DNA of 64,000 bases, from positions 1,730-65,729 of the forward strand of contig CAZUZL010000003.1 of the NCBI GenBank assembly GCA_964625065.1, given 5' to 3'. Under the pieces are notes generated by a model. It made no database searches. It was given only the letters and a program-made list of their open reading frames with translations, and was not told the origin of the DNA. Origin of the DNA: an uncultured Candidatus Saccharibacteria bacterium (GTDB lineage: Bacteria; Patescibacteriota; Minisyncoccia; Phycocordibacterales; UBA9973). The position numbers and the translations under genes were made by a program. Of this stretch, positions 2,555 to 20,368 are shown one piece after another. Positions within the stretch are counted from its first letter, which is position 1; every line of letters begins with the position of its first letter.

Positions 2555-3067
2555 ATGCAATGGTATACAATACAACATGTTTTATGGGCTGCGAGCGTTT
2601 TGTCGTTTGTTGGTCTTTTTATTTCAACTAAACTACTAGTCGACAAAATACGCCACAGATCAACCATGTGTGCCCGTAATGGCAGTGGTTGCGAAAGGGT
2701 TACTAATAGTCCGTATTCTACATTTTTACGCGTGCCACTAGCGCTGTGGGGTAGTTTGTTTTATTTACTTGTTCTAACTGCAAGTGTGTTTAATTTAATT
2801 ATTATTACATACTATGTAACAGCCCAAGGTATAAACATATCTGCTGGCCTAATGACAGTAAACACATGGTTTACCAGTGTTGTGTTTACTTTAATACCGC
2901 TTGGTGCCATTATATCTGTACGTTTGTTATATCTACAAAAGAAAATAGGTGCATGGTGCCGTTGGTGTGTTAGTCAGGAAGTTGTTGCCATATTGTTAAC
3001 TATAGTTTCTTTTAAACTTACTGTCAGTATGGCATCTATTTTAAAAATGCTTATTACTTTTAATTAA
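2555..3067 (+). CDS. Vitamin K epoxide reductase (VKOR)-family membrane protein
   Basis: A Cys pair (CARNGSGC) is followed by SPYSTF and a G..PLALWG loop, and a later CRWC CXXC motif sits in a TM helix. Start chosen after the upstream gene's stop. Confidence 0.55.
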   Translation: MQWYTIQHVLWAASVLSFVGLFISTKLLVDKIRHRSTMCARNGSGCERVTNSPYSTFLRVPLALWGSLFYLLVLTASVFNLIIITYYVTAQGINISAGLMTVNTWFTSVVFTLIPLGAIISVRLLYLQKKIGAWCRWCVSQEVVAILLTIVSFKLTVSMASILKMLITFN

Positions 3068-3633
3068 TGCTATATACAGGCAAGGGTGACAAAGGAACAA
3101 CTAAACTTTTCGACTCACCATCTGGTGTGCGTGTTTCTAAATCAGACATATTGTTCGACGCATTAGGTACCGTAGACGAATTAAATTCTTTTCTAGGTCT
3201 ATGCAAAGTGAAGAGCCAGTTTGCAGTTATTAGTGAACAGTTTATAGATTTAGTTTCAATAATACATAACGTACAGAATAATTTATTTATTATTCAGGCC
3301 CAATTGGCTGGTGCAGGCAAAAGCATCGAACAAAAAAGTATAGAAGAAATAGAAAAAATTATTAATGATATAGAAACTTCTCTACCACCCATTACTACAT
3401 TCTTTGTTTCTGGGGGTACAGAATTAGCAGCACTTTTCGACACTGCCCGGGCAATATCACGACGTGCAGAACGCGTAGTTATAAAAGTTTCTGAACAAAA
3501 TAGTACTGAAATAAGTAGAACAATACAACCAGAAACATTGCAGTACTTAAACCGGCTTTCTAGTCTACTGTACGCCTGCGCACGGTATGCAAACCATGTG
3601 TCTGGGGTAGGCGACAATGCCCCCACATACTAG
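3067..3633 (+). CDS. ATP:cob(I)alamin adenosyltransferase, PduO-type
   Basis: N-terminus reads MLYTGKGDKGTTKLFDSPSGVRVSKSDILFDALGTVDELNSFLG. Confidence 0.8.
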   Translation: MLYTGKGDKGTTKLFDSPSGVRVSKSDILFDALGTVDELNSFLGLCKVKSQFAVISEQFIDLVSIIHNVQNNLFIIQAQLAGAGKSIEQKSIEEIEKIINDIETSLPPITTFFVSGGTELAALFDTARAISRRAERVVIKVSEQNSTEISRTIQPETLQYLNRLSSLLYACARYANHVSGVGDNAPTY

Positions 3634-4428: not shown

Positions 4429-5322
4429 TATTTTTTGTAATTTATTTAAAAAAGTATTTATAACATCTTTGTTTGGATCTATCCATATACCCAATTCTCG
4501 AGATTTTTTGTAGGGTGTTTCAATCTCAATTTCTGTCGAGCATCTTTTAGAGGGGTACCATGTTCCACAATAAATTGTGCTATCAATAAAAGCAATGTTT
4601 GTGTGTAAGCGATCAGGTTTTTTATCTGAAAAGGTTACTTCTACGTTACCAAAGGAACCGAAATTATTTTCTTTGTATTTCGGAGATAGAATAAATTTTA
4701 TAGGTATTTTTGTAGAAATATCTCGGAAATCACCCATAATTTTGCATTCTTTGCTGCATGATTTAAAGTAACAAATAATAGAATTTGCTTCATGCATATG
4801 TGATTTCCACATCTCGTTAATTGTATCAATCTTAGTTTTTGGGTCGCGGATCACGATGCCTAATTTCAGTAGTTCAACAGATTCATTTTTTGATATAAAT
4901 TCTTTAGACAACATCATTGCGATATTGCTGTTTTGTATTTTAACCATAGTGTCGTAAGGATTTTGTTGGTTAAACTTTTCTTGAAGGGACGTTGTAAATA
5001 TATAAACAAATAAATTATCGATGATTATATATTTTGAATGTAAACGGTATTCAGATATCATTTTGTACTTAGTAAATAATGTCTTTTTCGGTAAAACAAT
5101 TTCACCCTCAGTATATTTCTTCTCGTCAAAGATAATAGTTAGAGGTATTTTCTCGTCCACTTTATTTTCGATAGAAGTAATAATGTCAATATCAGACAAA
5201 CCTGATAATTCGCAATATATACTGGATTTTGCAGAATTTATTGCATCTAAAATATCCTGCTTAATTTCTTTGTATTGCAAGATGGCAACAGATTTTATAT
5301 GAGGATATTTTTCCATAATCAT
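4426..5322 (-). CDS. Phospholipase D-family (HKD) nuclease or phosphodiesterase-like protein
   Basis: HSKYIIIDN is a canonical HxK(x4)D motif. A second, degenerate motif is LHTNIAFIDSTIYCGTW. AT-rich. Confidence 0.65.
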   Translation of the reverse strand: MIMEKYPHIKSVAILQYKEIKQDILDAINSAKSSIYCELSGLSDIDIITSIENKVDEKIPLTIIFDEKKYTEGEIVLPKKTLFTKYKMISEYRLHSKYIIIDNLFVYIFTTSLQEKFNQQNPYDTMVKIQNSNIAMMLSKEFISKNESVELLKLGIVIRDPKTKIDTINEMWKSHMHEANSIICYFKSCSKECKIMGDFRDISTKIPIKFILSPKYKENNFGSFGNVEVTFSDKKPDRLHTNIAFIDSTIYCGTWYPSKRCSTEIEIETPYKKSRELGIWIDPNKDVINTFLNKLQKI

Positions 5323-5490
5323 TATATATTTTTTACTAATAGGGATATAGACGGGGATAATTAGAAATTTCTTGGGGTCCCGGATATTTCCTTCGTCAGT
5401 TAAGTCGGGAATTGGTCACAAATAAATTTTCAGGAGAAAATTTTTCGCGACCCCGACTCGCCGACCCGAAGGGTGCCCCGGCTCCGTCTT

Positions 5491-5520
5491 TCAATATCCC
5501 GATAGGCACACCAAAAATAT
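5491..5520 (+). repeat. Inverted partial copy of the tRNA-His 3' end
   Basis: TTCAATATCCCGATAGGCACACCAAAAAT versus the tRNA's TTCAATTCCCGATAGGCACCCAAAAAT. The copy is on the opposite strand, 30 bp from the tRNA. Confidence 0.5.
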
Positions 5521-5557
5521 AGTCGTCCAATGTTACACATAGTCCTCGTTATTTTTG

Positions 5558-5630
5558 GGTGCCTATCGGGAATTGAACCCGAATCGAGGGTTCCACAAAC
5601 CCCAGTGTTAACCATTACACCATAGGCACC
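5558..5630 (-). tRNA. tRNA-His (anticodon GTG)
   Basis: Manual fold: an 8-bp acceptor including G-1:C73, a GTGT/ACAC D-stem with a GG loop, a GGGGT/ACCCT anticodon stem with loop TTGTGGA, and a TTCAATT T-loop. CCA is not fully encoded. Confidence 0.85.
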
Positions 5631-5725
5631 ATCGTTCCATCTGAACGGTACTATTAAAGCATATTTTATTGCTTTATTCAAGTTTTCTAATTGGCGATTA
5701 ATTTTTATGTGCTATCATTACTAAT

Positions 5726-17062: not shown

Positions 17063-17151
17063 ATATATCGAAGCCATTGACAAAATACATGAAAAAGTAT
17101 ATAATACAGGTATAAATAAACTAGTTTTTTAATTTTTAAACCCCACATATA

Positions 17152-17781
17152 ATGATAGAAAATAACGAATTAGCGGCCATACTTGAGTCGCACGTAAACG
17201 GTAACATTAGTGCCGAAGCCAAAACCATCTTACAGGACGCGATATACCGCATCAAAAACATCGGAAAATATATTTCAAATGTTTTTAAAAAGGGTATCAC
17301 CCTTACTGTACAGGCCACTGAAACATTTACTGTTTCTGAAAAATCTTTGGAAGGTTTGTGGAAAAACATCATTGCCAGAGAAAAAGATAAGAAAAACCCC
17401 GAACCCTGGTTCGACGACGACATCCTGGGCTGGTTCGATGGCAAGACTATGCCGTCAATTACTGCCGAGTCTTCCTCGACTATCCAACGCTTTACCCAGA
17501 CTTTGACCCATGCACAAATTTTACAGGAAGCCGAAAATCTTTCTATCAAGAAAATTTATAGCTGGTTAGAAGCCATAAAGATCATCGAACAAGCGGTGTT
17601 GATGGGCGAAGTTGATGTTAAAGGTTTGGGTGTTATTGTGTACTTCAAAATAGATGGAGATGATACAGTGTACCGCTTCTACGCCGGTCGCAGCGGCGGT
17701 GGCCGGCTCAGCGTGAGCGTCAACGAGTACTTTCCGAGCTTTGAGTGGGATGCCGGTGATGGTGCTTCTTTTAGCAACTGA
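17152..17781 (+). CDS. DGR target (variable) protein; the C-terminal ~35 aa are encoded by VR
   Basis: The 3' end of the ORF is a near-copy of the TR at 18112-18221, with mismatches confined to TR adenines. No other recognisable domain. Confidence 0.7.
   Translation: MIENNELAAILESHVNGNISAEAKTILQDAIYRIKNIGKYISNVFKKGITLTVQATETFTVSEKSLEGLWKNIIAREKDKKNPEPWFDDDILGWFDGKTMPSITAESSSTIQRFTQTLTHAQILQEAENLSIKKIYSWLEAIKIIEQAVLMGEVDVKGLGVIVYFKIDGDDTVYRFYAGRSGGGRLSVSVNEYFPSFEWDAGDGASFSN
17669..17778 (+). repeat. DGR variable repeat (VR)
   Basis: Aligns to TR over about 110 nt. By manual alignment, roughly 19-20 of about 21 mismatches fall where TR has A (codons AAC/AAT/AAG in TR become TAC/GGT/AGC/TTT/GAT etc. 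in VR). Confidence 0.8.
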
Positions 17782-17796
17782 AATATTGTTGCTTAG

Positions 17797-17829
17797 AAAA
17801 TAAGAGTCTTTGTACCTTTGGTACTTAGA
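17797..17829 (+). other. Hairpin immediately 3' of VR
   Basis: AAGAGTCTTTGTACC-TTT-GGTACTTAGACTCTT: an 8-bp outer stem plus a 5-bp inner stem. DGRs commonly carry a stem-loop 3' of VR. Confidence 0.5.
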
Positions 17830-18111
17830 CTCTTTTTAATTTTGTATTTTAAAATACATTAATATTTTGTATACTGATATAGTGATAAAGAAATGTCTGT
17901 GGTTAAGGCTTTAGACTTTTGTCATAAAAATATATATGGCAGAATATTGATGGTTACGGCCATTAGTAGTGTCTATGTATGTCTTTTATAATAAAAAATA
18001 ATTATTGTTGGTGGGTATGCCTGGTGGACTTTTATGTCCAGAATAATATACAGCACAGCTTTTATATATAAAAATATTCAGGTTGGCAGTGGTATAGATG
18101 GGTATGCCCAC

Positions 18112-18221
18112 AAAACCGCTTCAACGCCTATCGCAACGACGATGGCCAGCTCAACGTGAACGTCAACAAGTACAATCCGAGCAATGAGTGGAATGCCGGT
18201 AATGGTGCTTCTTTTAGAAAC
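18112..18221 (+). repeat. DGR template repeat (TR)
   Basis: Intergenic copy of the VR, rich in AAC/AAT codons, lying just beyond the avd stop codon and upstream of the RT. Confidence 0.8.
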
Positions 18222-18239
18222 AATGTTTTTCTTCCTCTA

Positions 18240-18599
18240 TTATTTATATGAGGGAGTTTTTTGTTCTAAAATTTTCTTTTCTATGCCTTTTTTCCAACCA
18301 CCTAACATACGACCTATTTCTTGTAGTTGTGTAGATATTTCAATATATTTTTTCTCTGGTATACATTTGTTTTCAAATGCTAGTTGCAAGAAAAATTTTA
18401 ATGCATCTAGTTTGCTTATAGCATGTTCCAGTCGTATAACTTTACGGTGTATATCTAAATACAATGCAAAAAATATATGTTCAAGTAAATTTAAAAAATA
18501 ATCTTCTATTTTAGAACCCAGTGTGTACCTGTGGGTACGCGGAAAATCGGTGTATAAAACAAACCACAGTTTATATATGCTTTGTGCCTTTTGCAACAC
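18240..18599 (-). CDS. avd: Avd-like four-helix-bundle protein (DGR accessory variability determinant)
   Basis: ...QKAQSIYKLWFVLYTDFPRTHRYTLGSKIEDYFLNLLEHI...IEISTQLQEIGRMLGGWKK matches the four-helix-bundle / 23S-IVS protein family. The true start is uncertain: a GTG at 18599, or an ATG at 18630 that would be in frame only with one extra C in the C10 tract. Confidence 0.7.
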   Translation of the reverse strand: MLQKAQSIYKLWFVLYTDFPRTHRYTLGSKIEDYFLNLLEHIFFALYLDIHRKVIRLEHAISKLDALKFFLQLAFENKCIPEKKYIEISTQLQEIGRMLGGWKKGIEKKILEQKTPSYK

Positions 18600-18611
18600 T
18601 TGCGGTGTTGC

Positions 18612-18621
18612 GGGGGGGGGG
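18612..18621. repeat. G10/C10 homopolymeric tract at the avd 5' end, between the divergent avd and RT genes
   Basis: Ten consecutive G on the + strand; the avd start is out of frame across it. Confidence 0.7.
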
Positions 18622-18647
18622 TAATATTCATAGTACAGTAGTATAAC

Positions 18648-19649
18648 ATGAAAAAGTTTACCAAAACCTACAAACAAATAGTAAATATAGAAAACATATT
18701 TTCTGCGTGGAAAAGTTTTGTCAAAGATAAATCTAAAAAACCAGATGTAATAATGTTCGGCAGTAAAATGATGGACAATGTTTTTGACCTGTATACTGAT
18801 TTGGTAAATAAAAATTATATTCATTCTAAATATAGTCATTTTAAAATAAACGACCCAAAACCCCGCGACATACACAAAGCATCTGTCCGGGACAGGGTAC
18901 TGCACCACTTGTTATATAACGAATTATATCCGTTCTTTGACACTATTTTTATATACGATTCGTATTCGTGTCGTTTCGGAAAAGGTACACACAAAGGCAT
19001 ACAAAGGTTTCGTAGTTTTGTACTAAAAGTTAGTAAAAATAAAACCAAACAGTGCTTTGTATTAAAATGCGATATACGCAAATTCTTTGCAAACATAGAC
19101 CACGCTATATTAAAAAGTATTTTAGAAAAATATATAAATGATGTTGATATTCGGAATCTGTTGTGCAGTATAGTAGACAGTTTTAAAACTAACCAAACTC
19201 CACATAAAAAATCAAGCAGTGAAATAGGTTTACCTTTAGGTAACCTGACTTCACAACTACTGGTAAACATATACATGAACGAATTTGACCAGTTTATAAA
19301 GAGGGAGTTAAAAATACAGCATTACATACGTTACGCTGACGACTTTGTTATTGTTGCAGATACTAAACAGTATTTAGAAAATATATTACCAAAGTTAGAA
19401 AGCTTTCTTATGCAAAATCTAAAACTACAATTACACCCTGATAAGGTTTACATTAAAACTATTTATTCCGGGGTAGATTTCCTTGGGTGGGTAGAATTTG
19501 GTGGGCATAGAGTGTTACGAACTAGTACAAAACACAGAATGTTTAGAAAAATAAAAAATAGTAAAAACATCGAACAAACAAAGACTTCGTACATGGGTAT
19601 GCTGGCCTGGGGTAATGCGAAGAAAATCAGTAGTATTCTTGGTTTTTAA
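18648..19649 (+). CDS. DGR reverse transcriptase
   Basis: RT motifs 1-7: PRDIHKASVRDRVLHHLL, LPLGNLTSQLLVNIYMNEFD (the DGR-type [I/L]GxxxSQ), and RYADDFVIV (YADD catalytic box). About 333 aa with no maturase or endonuclease domain. Confidence 0.9.
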   Translation: MKKFTKTYKQIVNIENIFSAWKSFVKDKSKKPDVIMFGSKMMDNVFDLYTDLVNKNYIHSKYSHFKINDPKPRDIHKASVRDRVLHHLLYNELYPFFDTIFIYDSYSCRFGKGTHKGIQRFRSFVLKVSKNKTKQCFVLKCDIRKFFANIDHAILKSILEKYINDVDIRNLLCSIVDSFKTNQTPHKKSSSEIGLPLGNLTSQLLVNIYMNEFDQFIKRELKIQHYIRYADDFVIVADTKQYLENILPKLESFLMQNLKLQLHPDKVYIKTIYSGVDFLGWVEFGGHRVLRTSTKHRMFRKIKNSKNIEQTKTSYMGMLAWGNAKKISSILGF

Positions 19650-19688
19650 AGTTGAGTTTGATAAAATAAAGATATAAATTTAATATAT

Positions 19689-20078
19689 ATGAAAGATTTT
19701 GATGTATGGAATAAAGAGAAAAAATACATAGAAAACAAGGTTGTTAATCGAGACCTTTTCTTCTATCCTCGTGAAATATGGTGGTGTTCCGCTGGACTTA
19801 ATATTGGAGTTGAATCAGATGGAAAGAATGAAAATTTCGAAAGACCAATGCTAATAATTAAAAAATTCAATGCCGATATGGTATGGGTGTTACCACTTAC
19901 TACAAAAGAAAAACAAAATAAATACCACTATAAATTAGAACATGAAACAATAAAGTCTTGGGTAATACTTTCTCAAATAAAAACAATAAGCACTAAAAGA
20001 CTATTGCGTAAAATTGGTTCTATTTCTGAATTTGATTTTAAGGAAGTTATTAAAAGAGTAAAAAATACATTATTATAA
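19689..20078 (+). CDS. MazF/PemK/Kid-family endoribonuclease toxin-like protein; no obvious antitoxin gene
   Basis: REIWWCSAGLNIGVESDGK..ERPMLIIKKF, VWVLPLTTK, SWVILSQIKTISTKRL and IGSISEFDFKEVIKRV align with the PemK/MazF fold motifs. Confidence 0.65.
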   Translation: MKDFDVWNKEKKYIENKVVNRDLFFYPREIWWCSAGLNIGVESDGKNENFERPMLIIKKFNADMVWVLPLTTKEKQNKYHYKLEHETIKSWVILSQIKTISTKRLLRKIGSISEFDFKEVIKRVKNTLL

Positions 20079-20082
20079 AATC

Positions 20083-20108
20083 GAAAGCCCCCTTACGGGG
20101 GCTTTCTC
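20083..20108 (+). terminator. Rho-independent terminator
   Basis: GAAAGCCCCC-TTAC-GGGGGCTTTC. Confidence 0.75.
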
Positions 20109-20368
20109 GGAGGCCGAAGCCACTAATACATATAGTATACACTATGTATTATACAATGCAAGTTTATTTGTGGTTACGAATTATAATTAATATATTCACT
20201 ATAATATTCATACAATAAAGGGTCTACAGTGTGATGTTGCGTTGTTTTCTAGGGTATGATATAATACATGCATCAGGGGGCCTAGGGGGTCCAAAAAGGG
20301 CCCAAAAGGCCTTTTAAAATTGTAAAGAAAATTACAAAAATTTATAAGAATTAAATTAAGATTAAACC

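Follow-up and report, generated by a model that had tools for sequence, protein, structure and literature searches.

The question raised by this locus is whether an open reading frame (ORF) whose 3' end (VR) is imperfectly repeated in an intergenic sequence downstream (TR), next to a reverse transcriptase (RT) gene, belongs to a complete diversity-generating retroelement (DGR) and, if so, to which kind, and how such an element would copy its template. Within the window, that is, the whole 64-kb stretch of DNA that was analysed, the region 17077-19649 very probably represents a complete chromosomal DGR of the kind already known from CPR bacteria (Patescibacteria). CPR-type DGRs are common in the tiny bacteria of groundwater (CPR/Patescibacteria) and are said to have been first surveyed by Paul and colleagues in 2017; to our knowledge, they form the least understood DGR clade, and we know of no element of this clade that has been reconstituted. 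[quoted passage not shown] 2018), which correspond to 'DGR clade 2' (Roux et al. 2021). As judged from the sequence, the layout observed here, with the target gene and its VR, TR and the RT gene on the plus strand and avd on the minus strand, is the standard CPR arrangement; given that this B3 layout is known and is common among the metagenomic relatives of the RT, the locus is therefore a further member of the group and not a new system.

The repeat pair, the reverse transcriptase and related loci

VR (17669-17778) and TR (18112-18221), both on the plus strand, align without gaps over 110 nt at an offset of 443. The exact ungapped alignment contains 20 mismatches among the 110 positions, of which 19 fall on TR adenines (11 A>G, 7 A>T and 1 A>C). 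A makes up 32% of TR, and under the hypergeometric distribution, 19 or more of the 20 mismatches would coincide with A with a probability of 7e-11. The initial annotation had claimed precisely such an adenine-specific footprint with a single T/G exception, and tabulation of the mismatches by TR base bears this out: the A bias is present, the sole non-A mismatch is T18129>G17686 (codon TAT>GGT), and the codon changes previously listed for TR AAC, AAT, AAG and GAC are all correct. When the non-A positions are considered alone, TR and VR are identical at 74 of the 75. No further copy of TR or VR was detected on either strand of the 64-kb window. TR contains 11 AAY codons (7 AAC and 4 AAT), and the theoretical ceiling for the protein variants that could be encoded via TR is about 1e19.

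The final 21 nt of VR and TR are one base apart (AGCAAC in VR, AGAAAC in TR). Because two relatives (L001/L002 and L005/L006) have, in their own VRs, the same C at this position (A>C at TR 18218), this substitution may be a fixed difference between TR and VR rather than a mutagenesis event. The GC-rich IMH of the BPP-1 kind is absent from the 3' ends of VR and TR. Two hairpins, at 17773-17793 and 17799-17837, stand 3' of VR, and neither has an equivalent 3' of TR; the single hairpin previously placed immediately 3' of VR is thus present, but it is one of two, the larger of which resembles a terminator of the target gene. The shorter one (plus strand) covers the end of VR and the stop codon of the target, with AGCAAC (17773-17778) facing GTTGCT (17788-17793), and is missing at the TR end; in L001 and L006, the stem is retained and the loop is altered, and a role in target recognition is conceivable. 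The larger hairpin (plus strand, inverted repeat I11), followed by a T run behind the target gene, looks like the terminator of this gene; L001 has a hairpin of a different sequence at the same site.

The RT gene (18648-19649, plus strand) encodes a protein of 333 aa (Pfam RVT_1, 1e-24) and is intact, with the LPLGNLTSQ and RYADDFVIV motifs in place, as originally described. The top PDB match, over residues 7-313, is a 328-aa reverse transcriptase, 8ub7 (one of 9 entries, 8ub7-8ube; E 3.4e-38), which we take to be bRT of the Bordetella phage BPP-1; the LGNLTSQ sequence of the window RT aligns with IGSLTSQ of bRT. The next-best matches are a group II intron RT (1.9e-15) and a retron RT (2e-13), so that the RT scores far better against the DGR enzyme than against the group II intron, retron or Abi RTs that had been named as potential competitors, the class being assigned here by the closest solved relative and motif.

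Among at least 579 metagenomic relatives of the RT, 80, which are 54-65% identical to it, were kept for comparison. In 75 of the 81 loci (the 80 related RT loci and the window), a minus-strand avd adjoins the RT, and 51 of the 81 show the same arrangement with A-biased TR/VR repeats. There is, then, no essential difference between this element and other CPR DGRs: the gene order and orientation are identical, the sole target is adjacent, carries VR at its C-terminus and lacks a transmembrane (TM) segment, signal peptide or known domain, the element is chromosomal, and the closely related RTs come from groundwater metagenomes. The element differs from its relatives in that its target family is shared with only one of the 80 RT relatives (L034) and in the presence of a PemK/MazF-like toxin ORF (19689-20078, plus strand, 129 aa; Pfam PemK_toxin 59 bits, cut-off 23.1) that is missing from all 80 related RT loci. 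No ORF of at least 50 aa that could encode an antitoxin lies beside this ORF, which, on sequence grounds, is a passenger and not a DGR component. Accordingly, all components of the DGR delineated in the initial annotation at 17152-20078 are present, but that range also takes in this unrelated ORF.

The target protein and its chromosomal setting

The target (variable protein) gene (17152-17781, plus strand) is an intact ORF of 209 codons, of which the final 37 (codons 173-209) are the variable ones, in agreement with the earlier placement of VR at the extreme C-terminus. Upstream, at 17077-17105 on the same strand, lies a promoter-like site, TTGACA-17-TATAAT, which matches the consensus at 12 of 12 positions and is identified by this consensus match only; the identical sequence precedes the L001 orthologue. 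Neither a signal peptide nor a TM segment is visible in the protein. The original description of a target with no recognisable family holds for Pfam and NCBIfam, neither of which has a family for the 209-aa protein, but it requires amendment, inasmuch as the protein does have a family, comprising at least 122 clusters, and its predicted structure, a high-confidence model, is remotely C-type-lectin/FGE-like. The Foldseek search was not significant, Pfam FGE-sulfatase and Lectin_C gave no match to the target, and sequence identity to Treponema denticola TvpA (PDB 2y3c) and to FGE/EgtB/SenA-type domains is only 5-14%; unlike the TvpA-type C-type-lectin proteins, the target has an N-terminal helical region and no lipoprotein or secretion signal. 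The target protein is small and probably lectin-like.

Across the target homologues, the hypervariable columns are the VR columns. The near-identical homologues P0009 and P0144 differ by 11 residues, all inside VR, and the differences between P0005 and P0140 are mainly in VR; the four matching places for P0003 all end at VR or no further than about 65 nt from it, and L034 carries two paralogous targets with 16 of 16 A-mismatches each. The genome relatives of the target come from Ca. Nomurabacteria and Paceibacterota, and no relative was found in 2.9 million viral contigs.

The element is flanked by a MacB/FtsX transporter gene and SIMPL upstream and by secE-nusG-rplK downstream. In the syntenic L001, the order is SIMPL - target (80% identical) - 219 bp - secE - nusG - rplK, so the target gene, kept in L001, belongs to the conserved backbone; absent from L001 is a cassette of 2.4 kb (approximately 17838-20235) that consists of the TR RNA gene, avd, the RT gene and the pemK-like ORF. 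No repeats flanking this 2.4-kb indel were found. Likewise, the target homologues in L003 and L007 have no TR or RT nearby.

A conserved, covarying RNA domain upstream of TR

The spacer of about 330 nt between VR and TR holds a promoter-like site followed by a covarying leader RNA of about 230 nt, so that the stretch from a conserved -10 box to TR is occupied by a conserved RNA domain. The promoter-like site (17848-17875, plus strand; TTTAAA-16-TATACT) shows 9 of 12 consensus matches, and its -10 box is a conserved block of columns across 48 related spacers and is preceded by TG in most of them; transcription of the TR RNA would start around 17881. The structured leader (17881-18111, plus strand), delineated from an alignment of 47 leaders, comprises helices H1 (17895-17915) and H2 (17934-17978), a linker strand (18003-18009), a 12-bp helix H3 (18011-18022 with 18100-18111), the 3' strand of which ends one base before TR (that is, TR starts 1 nt past H3), and, between the strands of H3, helices H4 (18026-18039) and H5 (18053-18055 with 18085-18087). 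The RNAalifold consensus of the 47 leaders includes 43 pairs, with compensatory changes in 38; in the alignment, 91.7% of the cells are paired, compared to 40-50% when the partners are slid, and the covariation score is 0.79 vs 0.13-0.20 in the slid controls. Moreover, a covariance model (CM) made without the window sequence matches 17992-18114 with 83.7 bits (E 6e-14), with no second match in the window better than E 3.8. The same model matches 62 of the 80 RT loci, once in each and always on the plus strand, and does not match any of the target-only loci. In 46 of the 47 loci, the 3' strand of H3 prefers its upstream partner (-16.2 kcal/mol) over the sequence downstream of TR (-8.7). We found no description of a structured leader for the CPR DGR clade in the literature searched; the upstream sequence analysed by Handa et al. 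(bioRxiv 10.1101/2023.10.23.563531) extended no further than 40 nt from TR.

The 3' end of TR with its tail (18219-18262, plus strand) overlaps the stop codon of avd. Its first part, 18219-18225, is predicted to pair with the linker strand 18003-18009 and is followed by a hairpin (CTTCCTC 18231-18237 with GAGGGAG 18250-18256) and a T run; a comparable arrangement, with a predicted hairpin and then a T run (often GAGTTTT) shortly 3' of TR, is seen in most of the 47 relatives. The mean energy of the linker/tail duplex is -7.1 kcal/mol for cognate and -4.7 kcal/mol for non-cognate combinations, the cognate value being reached in none of 10,000 permutations, with a modest cognate edge for the short proximal helix between the linker and the TR end (4.8 vs 4.3 bp). 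The position of the post-TR hairpin agrees with that of the Avd-binding stem-loop located directly downstream of TR in the BPP-1 RNA (Handa et al.); nevertheless, this hairpin could be a plain terminator and not an Avd-binding element.

The avd gene, the activity of the element and a model for copying

The gene for the accessory variability determinant, avd (18240-18599, minus strand; minimal coding sequence from GTG 18599), corresponds to the minus-strand ORF LQEIGRMLGGWKK. The divergent Avd-like gene noted previously beside TR passes Pfam bAvd (64.8 bits, cut-off 40) and falls just under the cut-off of NCBIfam DivGenRetAVD (75.1 bits, cut-off 80). An N-terminal extension to ATG 18631 requires a frame change in the C tract of a homopolymer, G10 on the plus strand and C10 on the minus strand (18612-18621), that lies at the avd-RT junction and is the sole G/C run of at least 8 in the window. 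Since this only upstream ATG is out of frame, owing to the C10 tract, and the frame itself offers GTG or TTG as alternative starts, without an obvious ribosome-binding site, Avd may be off or else expressed by recoding. The tract is found in all 55 distinct scorable related loci (7-12 nt, mode 10), and the most-upstream avd ATG is out of frame in 47 of these 55 elements, which therefore appears to be the normal state of the clade and not decay of this copy. Furthermore, L043 and L044, which do not differ in the 300 nt to either side of the tract, have tracts of 9 and 10 nt, respectively; because tract length varies between otherwise identical sequences, reversible switching is suggested. In many relatives, the RT start codon, on the opposite strand, also follows this tract at a distance of 9-16 nt. 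Conceivably, this conserved, hypermutable G/C tract gates Avd, and perhaps the RT, through either phase variation or +1 recoding at the CCC-C run. The resemblance to the phase-variable loci of Neisseria, Campylobacter and Bordetella lies in a gene with a G/C run of 9-11 close to its 5' end, in the setting of the frame by the run length, and in the variation of that length between otherwise identical sequences; unlike in those loci, the out-of-frame (+1) state predominates (34 of 55), which resembles programmed recoding more than a random on/off switch, and the tract is often shared with the start region of the opposite-strand RT gene. We found no description of such a tract at the avd-RT junction of the CPR clade in the literature searched.

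The out-of-frame avd start could also mean that the locus is a DGR by descent that is now off or decaying, with VR a frozen record of past mutagenesis, and the one non-adenine mismatch between TR and VR, the loss or original absence of the cassette in L001, where the target was kept, and the target homologues of L003 and L007 that also stand alone would be compatible with such decay. However, the RT, with its catalytic motifs, and the target ORF are intact, the TR leader scores high against a model built from relatives, and both the prevalence of the out-of-frame ATG in the clade and the variable length of the tract argue against degradation of this particular copy, so we consider decay unlikely, albeit a scenario to be taken seriously. 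The probability is far lower that this is the DGR of a prophage or mobile element which, as in BPP-1, diversifies a phage receptor-binding protein: the housekeeping genes on both flanks, the target gene embedded in the conserved backbone, the lack of target relatives among the viral contigs and the lack of terminal repeats at the indel all speak against this interpretation, even though, compared with the syntenic genome, TR-avd-RT-pemK forms a 2.4-kb indel and is accompanied by a toxin-like gene.

Least credible of all is a chance or decayed duplication beside an unrelated RT of the group II intron, retron or Drt/Abi type, a reading to which we assign almost no weight. The RT does show sub-threshold similarity to the NCBIfam models of group II intron, Drt2, Drt3a and retron RTs, but all NCBIfam RT models remain far below their cut-offs (135.7 bits for the group II intron RT/maturase, with a cut-off of 300), Rfam detected neither a group II intron nor a retron RNA family in the window, and no extra domain was detected in the 333-aa protein, so that the identity of a group II intron, retron or defence RT was rejected. 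Such a coincidence is further contradicted by the extreme A bias of the mismatches, by the E-value of the DGR bRT, which is 23 orders of magnitude better than that of the next-best solved match, by the adjoining avd, and by the recurrence of the arrangement with A-biased repeats in 50 related loci.

On the preferred reading as a CPR-type DGR, a copying mechanism can be proposed by analogy with BPP-1, using the element order of that phage and the cryo-EM structure of the bRT-Avd-RNA complex (PDB 8ub7 series; Handa et al.). A dedicated promoter would give rise to a distinct non-coding transcript of some 380 nt (roughly 17881-18262), in which the folded leader of 230 nt would precede TR (110 nt), and a short tail and a hairpin with its U tract would follow. 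The RT and Avd would assemble on this RNA, and the strand 18003-18009, directly 5' of H3 and paired with the TR 3' end (18219-18225), would serve as the cis-primer strand, equivalent to Sp47-56 of BPP-1. The cDNA would then be made 3' to 5' through TR, with misincorporation opposite adenines, and its synthesis would halt at the 12-bp H3, the putative counterpart of the BPP-1 'cPRT Stop' duplex; VR would be replaced by the cDNA via homology-guided retrohoming, yielding, at most, the roughly 1e19 variants in the putative ligand-binding face of a small, signal-peptide-free, remotely C-type-lectin-like protein. The assignments of the primer and the stop, the transcript ends and the idea of permutation are analogies backed by covariation, and we give this specific model of priming, stopping and permutation about an even chance of being correct.

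The comparison with the BPP-1 DGR (mtd-avd-TR-brt) reveals both shared and distinct features. In common are the homologous RT with the I/LGxxxSQ motif, Avd, the A-to-N transfer from TR to a C-terminal VR, the duplex of about 12 bp that abuts the 5' edge of TR, where cDNA synthesis would stop, the strand directly beside this stop-like duplex that pairs with the TR 3' end, and the stem-loop just 3' of TR. By contrast, avd is inverted here and lies between TR and the RT gene, the RNA appears to end about 40 nt past TR, and the target is a small cellular protein and not a tail fibre. Moreover, the partner of the stop duplex, the primer-like strand, a short stem-loop, an A-rich single strand and further helices are found 5' of TR, whereas in BPP-1 they belong to the 3' spacer (Sp). 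Thus, the RNA scaffold made up of these parts appears to be circularly permuted relative to that of BPP-1, all of them perhaps having come to lie 5' instead of 3' of TR, and TR itself may be viewed as a loop between the 12-bp stop helix and the primer/template duplex.

In retron msr-msd RNAs, structured RNA precedes the template, the 3' end of which is base-paired back for cis-priming from an internal nucleotide. The predicted RNA of the window would share this topology of a 5' structured RNA and a paired-back template 3' end, but the retron RT belongs to another clade, a stable msDNA is not indicated for this locus, and the product here would be used for retrohoming into VR. As a tentative generalization, to which we give somewhat less than even weight, CPR-type (B3) DGRs would combine a circularly permuted RNA, with the RT/Avd scaffold 5' of TR, and a homopolymer switch gating Avd and perhaps the RT.

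By itself, one more DGR in a clade catalogued in thousands changes little; what makes it useful is that, within about 2.6 kb, it presents the complete set of parts cleanly and compactly: promoter, non-coding RNA, avd, RT and a target of 209 aa. Comparison with its relatives brings out a conserved RNA fold ahead of TR, which suggests how a CPR-type DGR primes DNA copying, and the conserved leader, with the candidate primer strand and stop helix mapped, yields concrete predictions on the priming and stopping of cDNA synthesis in elements with an inverted avd. The target family bears on what CPR cells diversify, and on whether they do so inside the cell. The G/C tract offers a testable idea on the control of a costly mutator: if the homopolymer switch is real, hypermutation of the target would itself be switched stochastically.

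An apparently complete retroelement of a patescibacterial clade

When the variable repeat (VR, 17669-17778) is aligned without gaps with the template repeat (TR, 18112-18221) located 443 nt downstream, 20 of the 110 nucleotides are mismatched, and TR carries an adenine at 19 of these (11 A>G, 7 A>T and 1 A>C), the sole exception being T18129>G17686. Given the TR adenine content of 32%, the hypergeometric probability of finding 19 or more of 20 mismatches on adenine is 7e-11; at the non-adenine positions, VR is identical to TR in 74 cases of 75. The repeat pair, the offset, the adenine bias and the lone T/G exception described in the initial annotation thus all hold when the mismatches are tabulated by TR base. 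No TR-like sequence besides VR was detected on either strand of the 64-kb window when the non-adenine positions were scored. In the VR reading frame, TR contains 7 AAC and 4 AAT codons, and its 20 adenine-containing codons allow no more than about 1e19 protein variants.

The reverse transcriptase (RT; 18648-19649, 333 aa) matches the Pfam family RVT_1 and, among all solved structures, is closest to a 328-aa reverse transcriptase (entries 8ub7-8ube; E 3.4e-38 over residues 7-313), which we take to be bRT of the Bordetella phage; the LPLGNLTSQ motif aligns with IPIGSLTSQ of that enzyme. The next-best structural class, the group II intron RTs, reached only E 1.9e-15, with retron and Drt RTs weaker still, in agreement with the proposed assignment of the RT to diversity-generating retroelements (DGRs); the scores of the NCBIfam RT models against this protein were all far under the cut-off. 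The gene next to TR on the minus strand (18240-18599), which had been described as Avd-like, indeed encodes an Avd protein, with 64.8 bits against the Pfam bAvd model (cut-off 40) and 75.1 bits, slightly below the cut-off of 80, against NCBIfam DivGenRetAVD. The motifs, ORF sizes and orientations quoted previously were all correct. The range of the element had been extended to 20078, and of this range the target with VR, TR, avd and RT stand, whereas the last ORF (19689-20078, plus strand, 129 aa, directly after RT) encodes a PemK/MazF-like toxin (59 bits) that the 80 related RT loci all lack and that is therefore considered a passenger. No antitoxin candidate adjoins it among ORFs of at least 50 aa; a strong hairpin (20083-20106) follows it.

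A DGR clade that is confined to Patescibacteria, is encoded by cells and has targets without recognisable domains has been reported by Roux et al. (PMC8144416). A metagenome scan yielded at least 579 relatives of the RT, of which 80, with 54-65% identity to the window RT, were kept for comparison. In 75 of the 81 loci (these 80 and the window), an Avd ORF is located on the minus strand immediately upstream of RT, and in 51 of the 81 an adenine-biased TR/VR pair is present in the same order, with VR approximately 430-540 nt upstream of TR. The recurrence of this layout, together with the patescibacterial clade in the literature, supports the DGR interpretation: the window holds a true DGR, to all appearances complete, that is ordinary for its clade and belongs to a type already known and highly abundant.

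The variable protein and its relatives without a nearby template

The 209-aa target (17152-17781), of which VR comprises the last 37 codons, had been said to have no recognisable family, and this is true of Pfam and NCBIfam, as well as of sequence relatives in PDB; a family of its own nevertheless exists. No record identical to the target was found. A search of 5.8 billion clusters yielded 11 close homologues (one named from Ca. Pacebacteria), and a profile search extended the family to 122 clusters at 50% identity, nearly all of 110-300 aa, the exceptions being a few shorter fragments and one protein of 384 aa. None of 77 members had a credible Pfam match. Conservation is high up to residue 172 or so, collapses exactly at the VR codons and returns at the AGDGA(C/S)FSN end. 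Structure modelling gave a pLDDT of 85 with 11 sequences in the alignment and 95.6 with 77 sequences. Neither a signal peptide nor a membrane segment is apparent in the target sequence, which is typical of CPR (Patescibacteria) targets (Roux et al., PMC8144416). The genomic relatives of the window's target come from Ca. Nomurabacteria and Paceibacterota, and a search of 2.9 million viral contigs found no relative. A promoter-like site upstream of the target gene (17077-17105, plus strand; TTGACA-17-TATAAT) matches the sigma-70 consensus at 12 of 12 positions and is also present in the syntenic locus L001; this conserved, perfect site suggests that the variable protein may be strongly and constitutively expressed.

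Within clusters of 90% identity, the differences between target homologues are concentrated in VR: all 11 residues that distinguish P0009 from P0144 lie inside it, and those between P0005 and P0140 are chiefly there. The VRs of the two syntenic orthologues in the loci L001/L002 and L005/L006 differ from the window TR mostly at adenine positions, and the few other differences imply that a slightly different TR would be at work there. For another homologue, P0003, all 4 places returned (L005, L006 and two more contigs) stop at VR or within about 65 nt of it. Assemblers break at polymorphic repeats, and a VR that is polymorphic or repeated could account for these contig ends. The only one of the 80 related RT loci with the window's target family, L034, carries two paralogous targets (2635-3171 and 5152-5688 of that locus) on either side of one RT, and the mismatches of each with the common TR (3499-3605) are of the A type in 16 cases of 16. 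On the 24-kb ENA/JGI contig that encodes the homologue P0007, the genes listed are duplicated as a perfect inverted copy around ClpP | ClpP (pyrophosphatase ... trigger factor, target, ClpP | ClpP, target, trigger factor ...), which probably reflects a palindromic misassembly.

The element sits among housekeeping genes, with those for a MacB/FtsX transporter and for SIMPL upstream and secE, nusG, rplK, a dCTP deaminase-like gene and others downstream. In L001, a target that is 80% identical and carries a differently diversified VR is separated from secE by only 219 bp, so that the cassette from about 17838 to about 20235, which includes the TR RNA gene, avd, RT and the pemK-like ORF, amounts to a 2.4-kb indel relative to L001 5631-5848. 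Within the flanks examined, no TR was found near the targets of any of the seven target loci (L001-L007), and the targets of L003 and L007 likewise have no TR or RT nearby. These 'orphan' targets are either served in trans from a remote cassette or have persisted while cassettes came and went. A search for flanking repeats that would attest to transposition of the cassette returned only weak AT-rich matches, and this evidence was discarded. A GC-rich palindromic stretch (GGGGGCCTAGGGGGTCC...GGGCCCAAAAGGCC) occurs at 20270-20320 (plus strand) and at about 5725-5750 of L001, with a conserved TATAAT box that resembles a promoter on one side and secE on the other, in surroundings of 38% GC; the terminator scan marks part of it on the minus strand.

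A length-variable homopolymer at the avd-RT junction

Between the divergent avd and RT genes lies a run of ten G (18612-18621, plus strand; ten C on the avd strand), the only G/C run of at least 8 nt in the 64-kb window. The reading frame of the Avd body runs on as ...YPPPATPQVLQKAQ... across the C tract, and the sole ATG upstream of avd (18631) is in a different frame; a tract of 11 or 8 C would unite the two. The tract is real, conserved and variable in length: every one of the 55 distinct, scorable related loci carries it, with 7-12 nt and a mode of 10, and in L043 and L044, two related RT loci with identical flanks over 300 nt on either side, it has 9 and 10 nt, respectively. The most upstream open ATG of avd is in frame in 7 of the 55 loci, in the +1 frame in 34 and in the +2 frame in 13, with none open in 1; that is, it is out of frame in 47.

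Several roles of the tract are possible. It could be a phase switch at the DNA level or a site of transcriptional slippage, or it could promote +1 ribosomal frameshifting on CCC-C, which occurs via slippage of tRNA-Pro. Another possibility is that avd translation starts at the GTG or TTG just past the tract (18599/18596) and that the tract acts on the opposite strand, where, in many relatives, the RT ATG follows the G run by 9-16 nt, a Shine-Dalgarno-like spacing (26 nt in the window). A conserved peptide of the 'MNKLSHI' type was considered as proof of the upstream avd ATG and rejected: this stretch is antisense to the RT N-terminus in many relatives, so its conservation was not counted as evidence of the avd start.

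A predicted leader RNA upstream of the template repeat

The 'spacer' between VR and TR appears to be an RNA gene. Alignment of 48 spacers revealed about 230 nt of conserved sequence reaching up to TR from a -10 box (TATACT, 17870-17875, plus strand) that was also scored as promoter-like in the promoter scan; in the 80 related loci, the distance from the leader to the downstream RT is about 500-650 nt. The RNAalifold model of 47 sequences has 43 pairs, 38 of them with double compensatory changes; 91.7% of the cells are in standard pairs, versus 40-50% when the partners are slid by 1-3 columns, the covariation score is 0.79 versus 0.13-0.20, and none of 500 shuffles matched the observed pairing and covariation. 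The predicted helices are H1 (17895-17915), H2 (17934-17978), H3 (18011-18022 with 18100-18111; 12 bp, 10 of which covary), H4 (18026-18039) and H5 (18053-18055 with 18085-18087), with the 3' strand of H3 ending one base before TR. A covariance model of the 3' half, built from 39 relatives with the window left out, has a single match in the window (17992-18114, plus strand; 83.7 bits, E 6e-14; runner-up E 3.8). Of the 80 RT loci, 62 have one match apiece, invariably upstream of RT and on its strand; the seven target-only loci have none. No Rfam family matched 17700-18700 at permissive thresholds. A pairing of the leader GAGAGT with an ACTCTC tail was dropped because these bases are already used in the strongly covarying H2.

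Immediately 5' of H3, the linker 18003-18009 (TATTGTT) is complementary to 18219-18225 (AACAATG) at the 3' end of TR and its tail. Cognate linker/TR-end duplexes are more stable than non-cognate ones (-7.1 versus -4.7 kcal/mol), with none of 10,000 permutations as stable, and the two sides change together by clade (AAATGAAGA/TCTTCATTT versus AAATGAAAA/TTTTCATTT versus ACAATA/TATTGT); the short proximal helix alone gives a modest signal (cognate 4.8 versus 4.3 bp; permutation 1e-4). For the 3' strand of H3, pairing with the upstream partner (-16.2 kcal/mol) is favoured in 46 of 47 loci over anything available in the 150 nt past TR (-8.7 kcal/mol). Within about 10-25 nt of its end, TR is succeeded in most of the 47 loci by a predicted hairpin with a T run, for which GAGTTTT is a frequent ending; in the window, this hairpin (18231-18256, then a T run) overlaps the avd stop codon. 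The terminator scan is silent on it and on the hairpin 17799-17837, owing to loop or GC criteria; by sequence and conservation, both may be called terminator-like. Priming by the 3' U-tract of the RNA, folded back onto the GAAAC end of TR, was rejected, the U/A-run complementarity being too generic.

In the Bordetella phage BPP-1, the spacer RNA Sp, located 3' of TR, envelops bRT; a cis-primer (Sp47-56) pairs with TR117-129 and, 2 nt further, Sp59-70 forms the 'cPRT Stop' with the stretch that immediately precedes TR; next come a short stem-loop, unpaired adenosines, a 'thumb ring' of single-stranded RNA and a stem-loop that binds bRT; a stem-loop bound by Avd lies immediately 3' of TR (Handa et al., bioRxiv 10.1101/2023.10.23.563531). 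The leader described here presents the same order of elements, namely, a primer-like strand, one base, a stop-like strand, H4, a conserved A-rich single strand and further helices. However, unlike in BPP-1, these elements are 5' of TR, and only a stem-loop is left on the 3' side. From covariation and by analogy, we infer that the RNA scaffold of the window may be circularly permuted relative to that of BPP-1. The survey of Handa et al. (bioRxiv 10.1101/2023.10.23.563531) covered only 40 nt on the 5' side of TR and 100 nt on the 3' side and would have missed a 5' leader scaffold. Neither this leader or permuted scaffold nor the junction tract was found to have a prior description in the literature searched, the CPR survey of Paul et al. 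2017 aside. What the present analysis adds is a model of the leader RNA, the homopolymer at the junction and the synteny of the orphan targets; all three are apparently undescribed in that literature, and all are testable. The permuted scaffold, if true, would fit the inverted avd gene, which sits where Sp is found in BPP-1.
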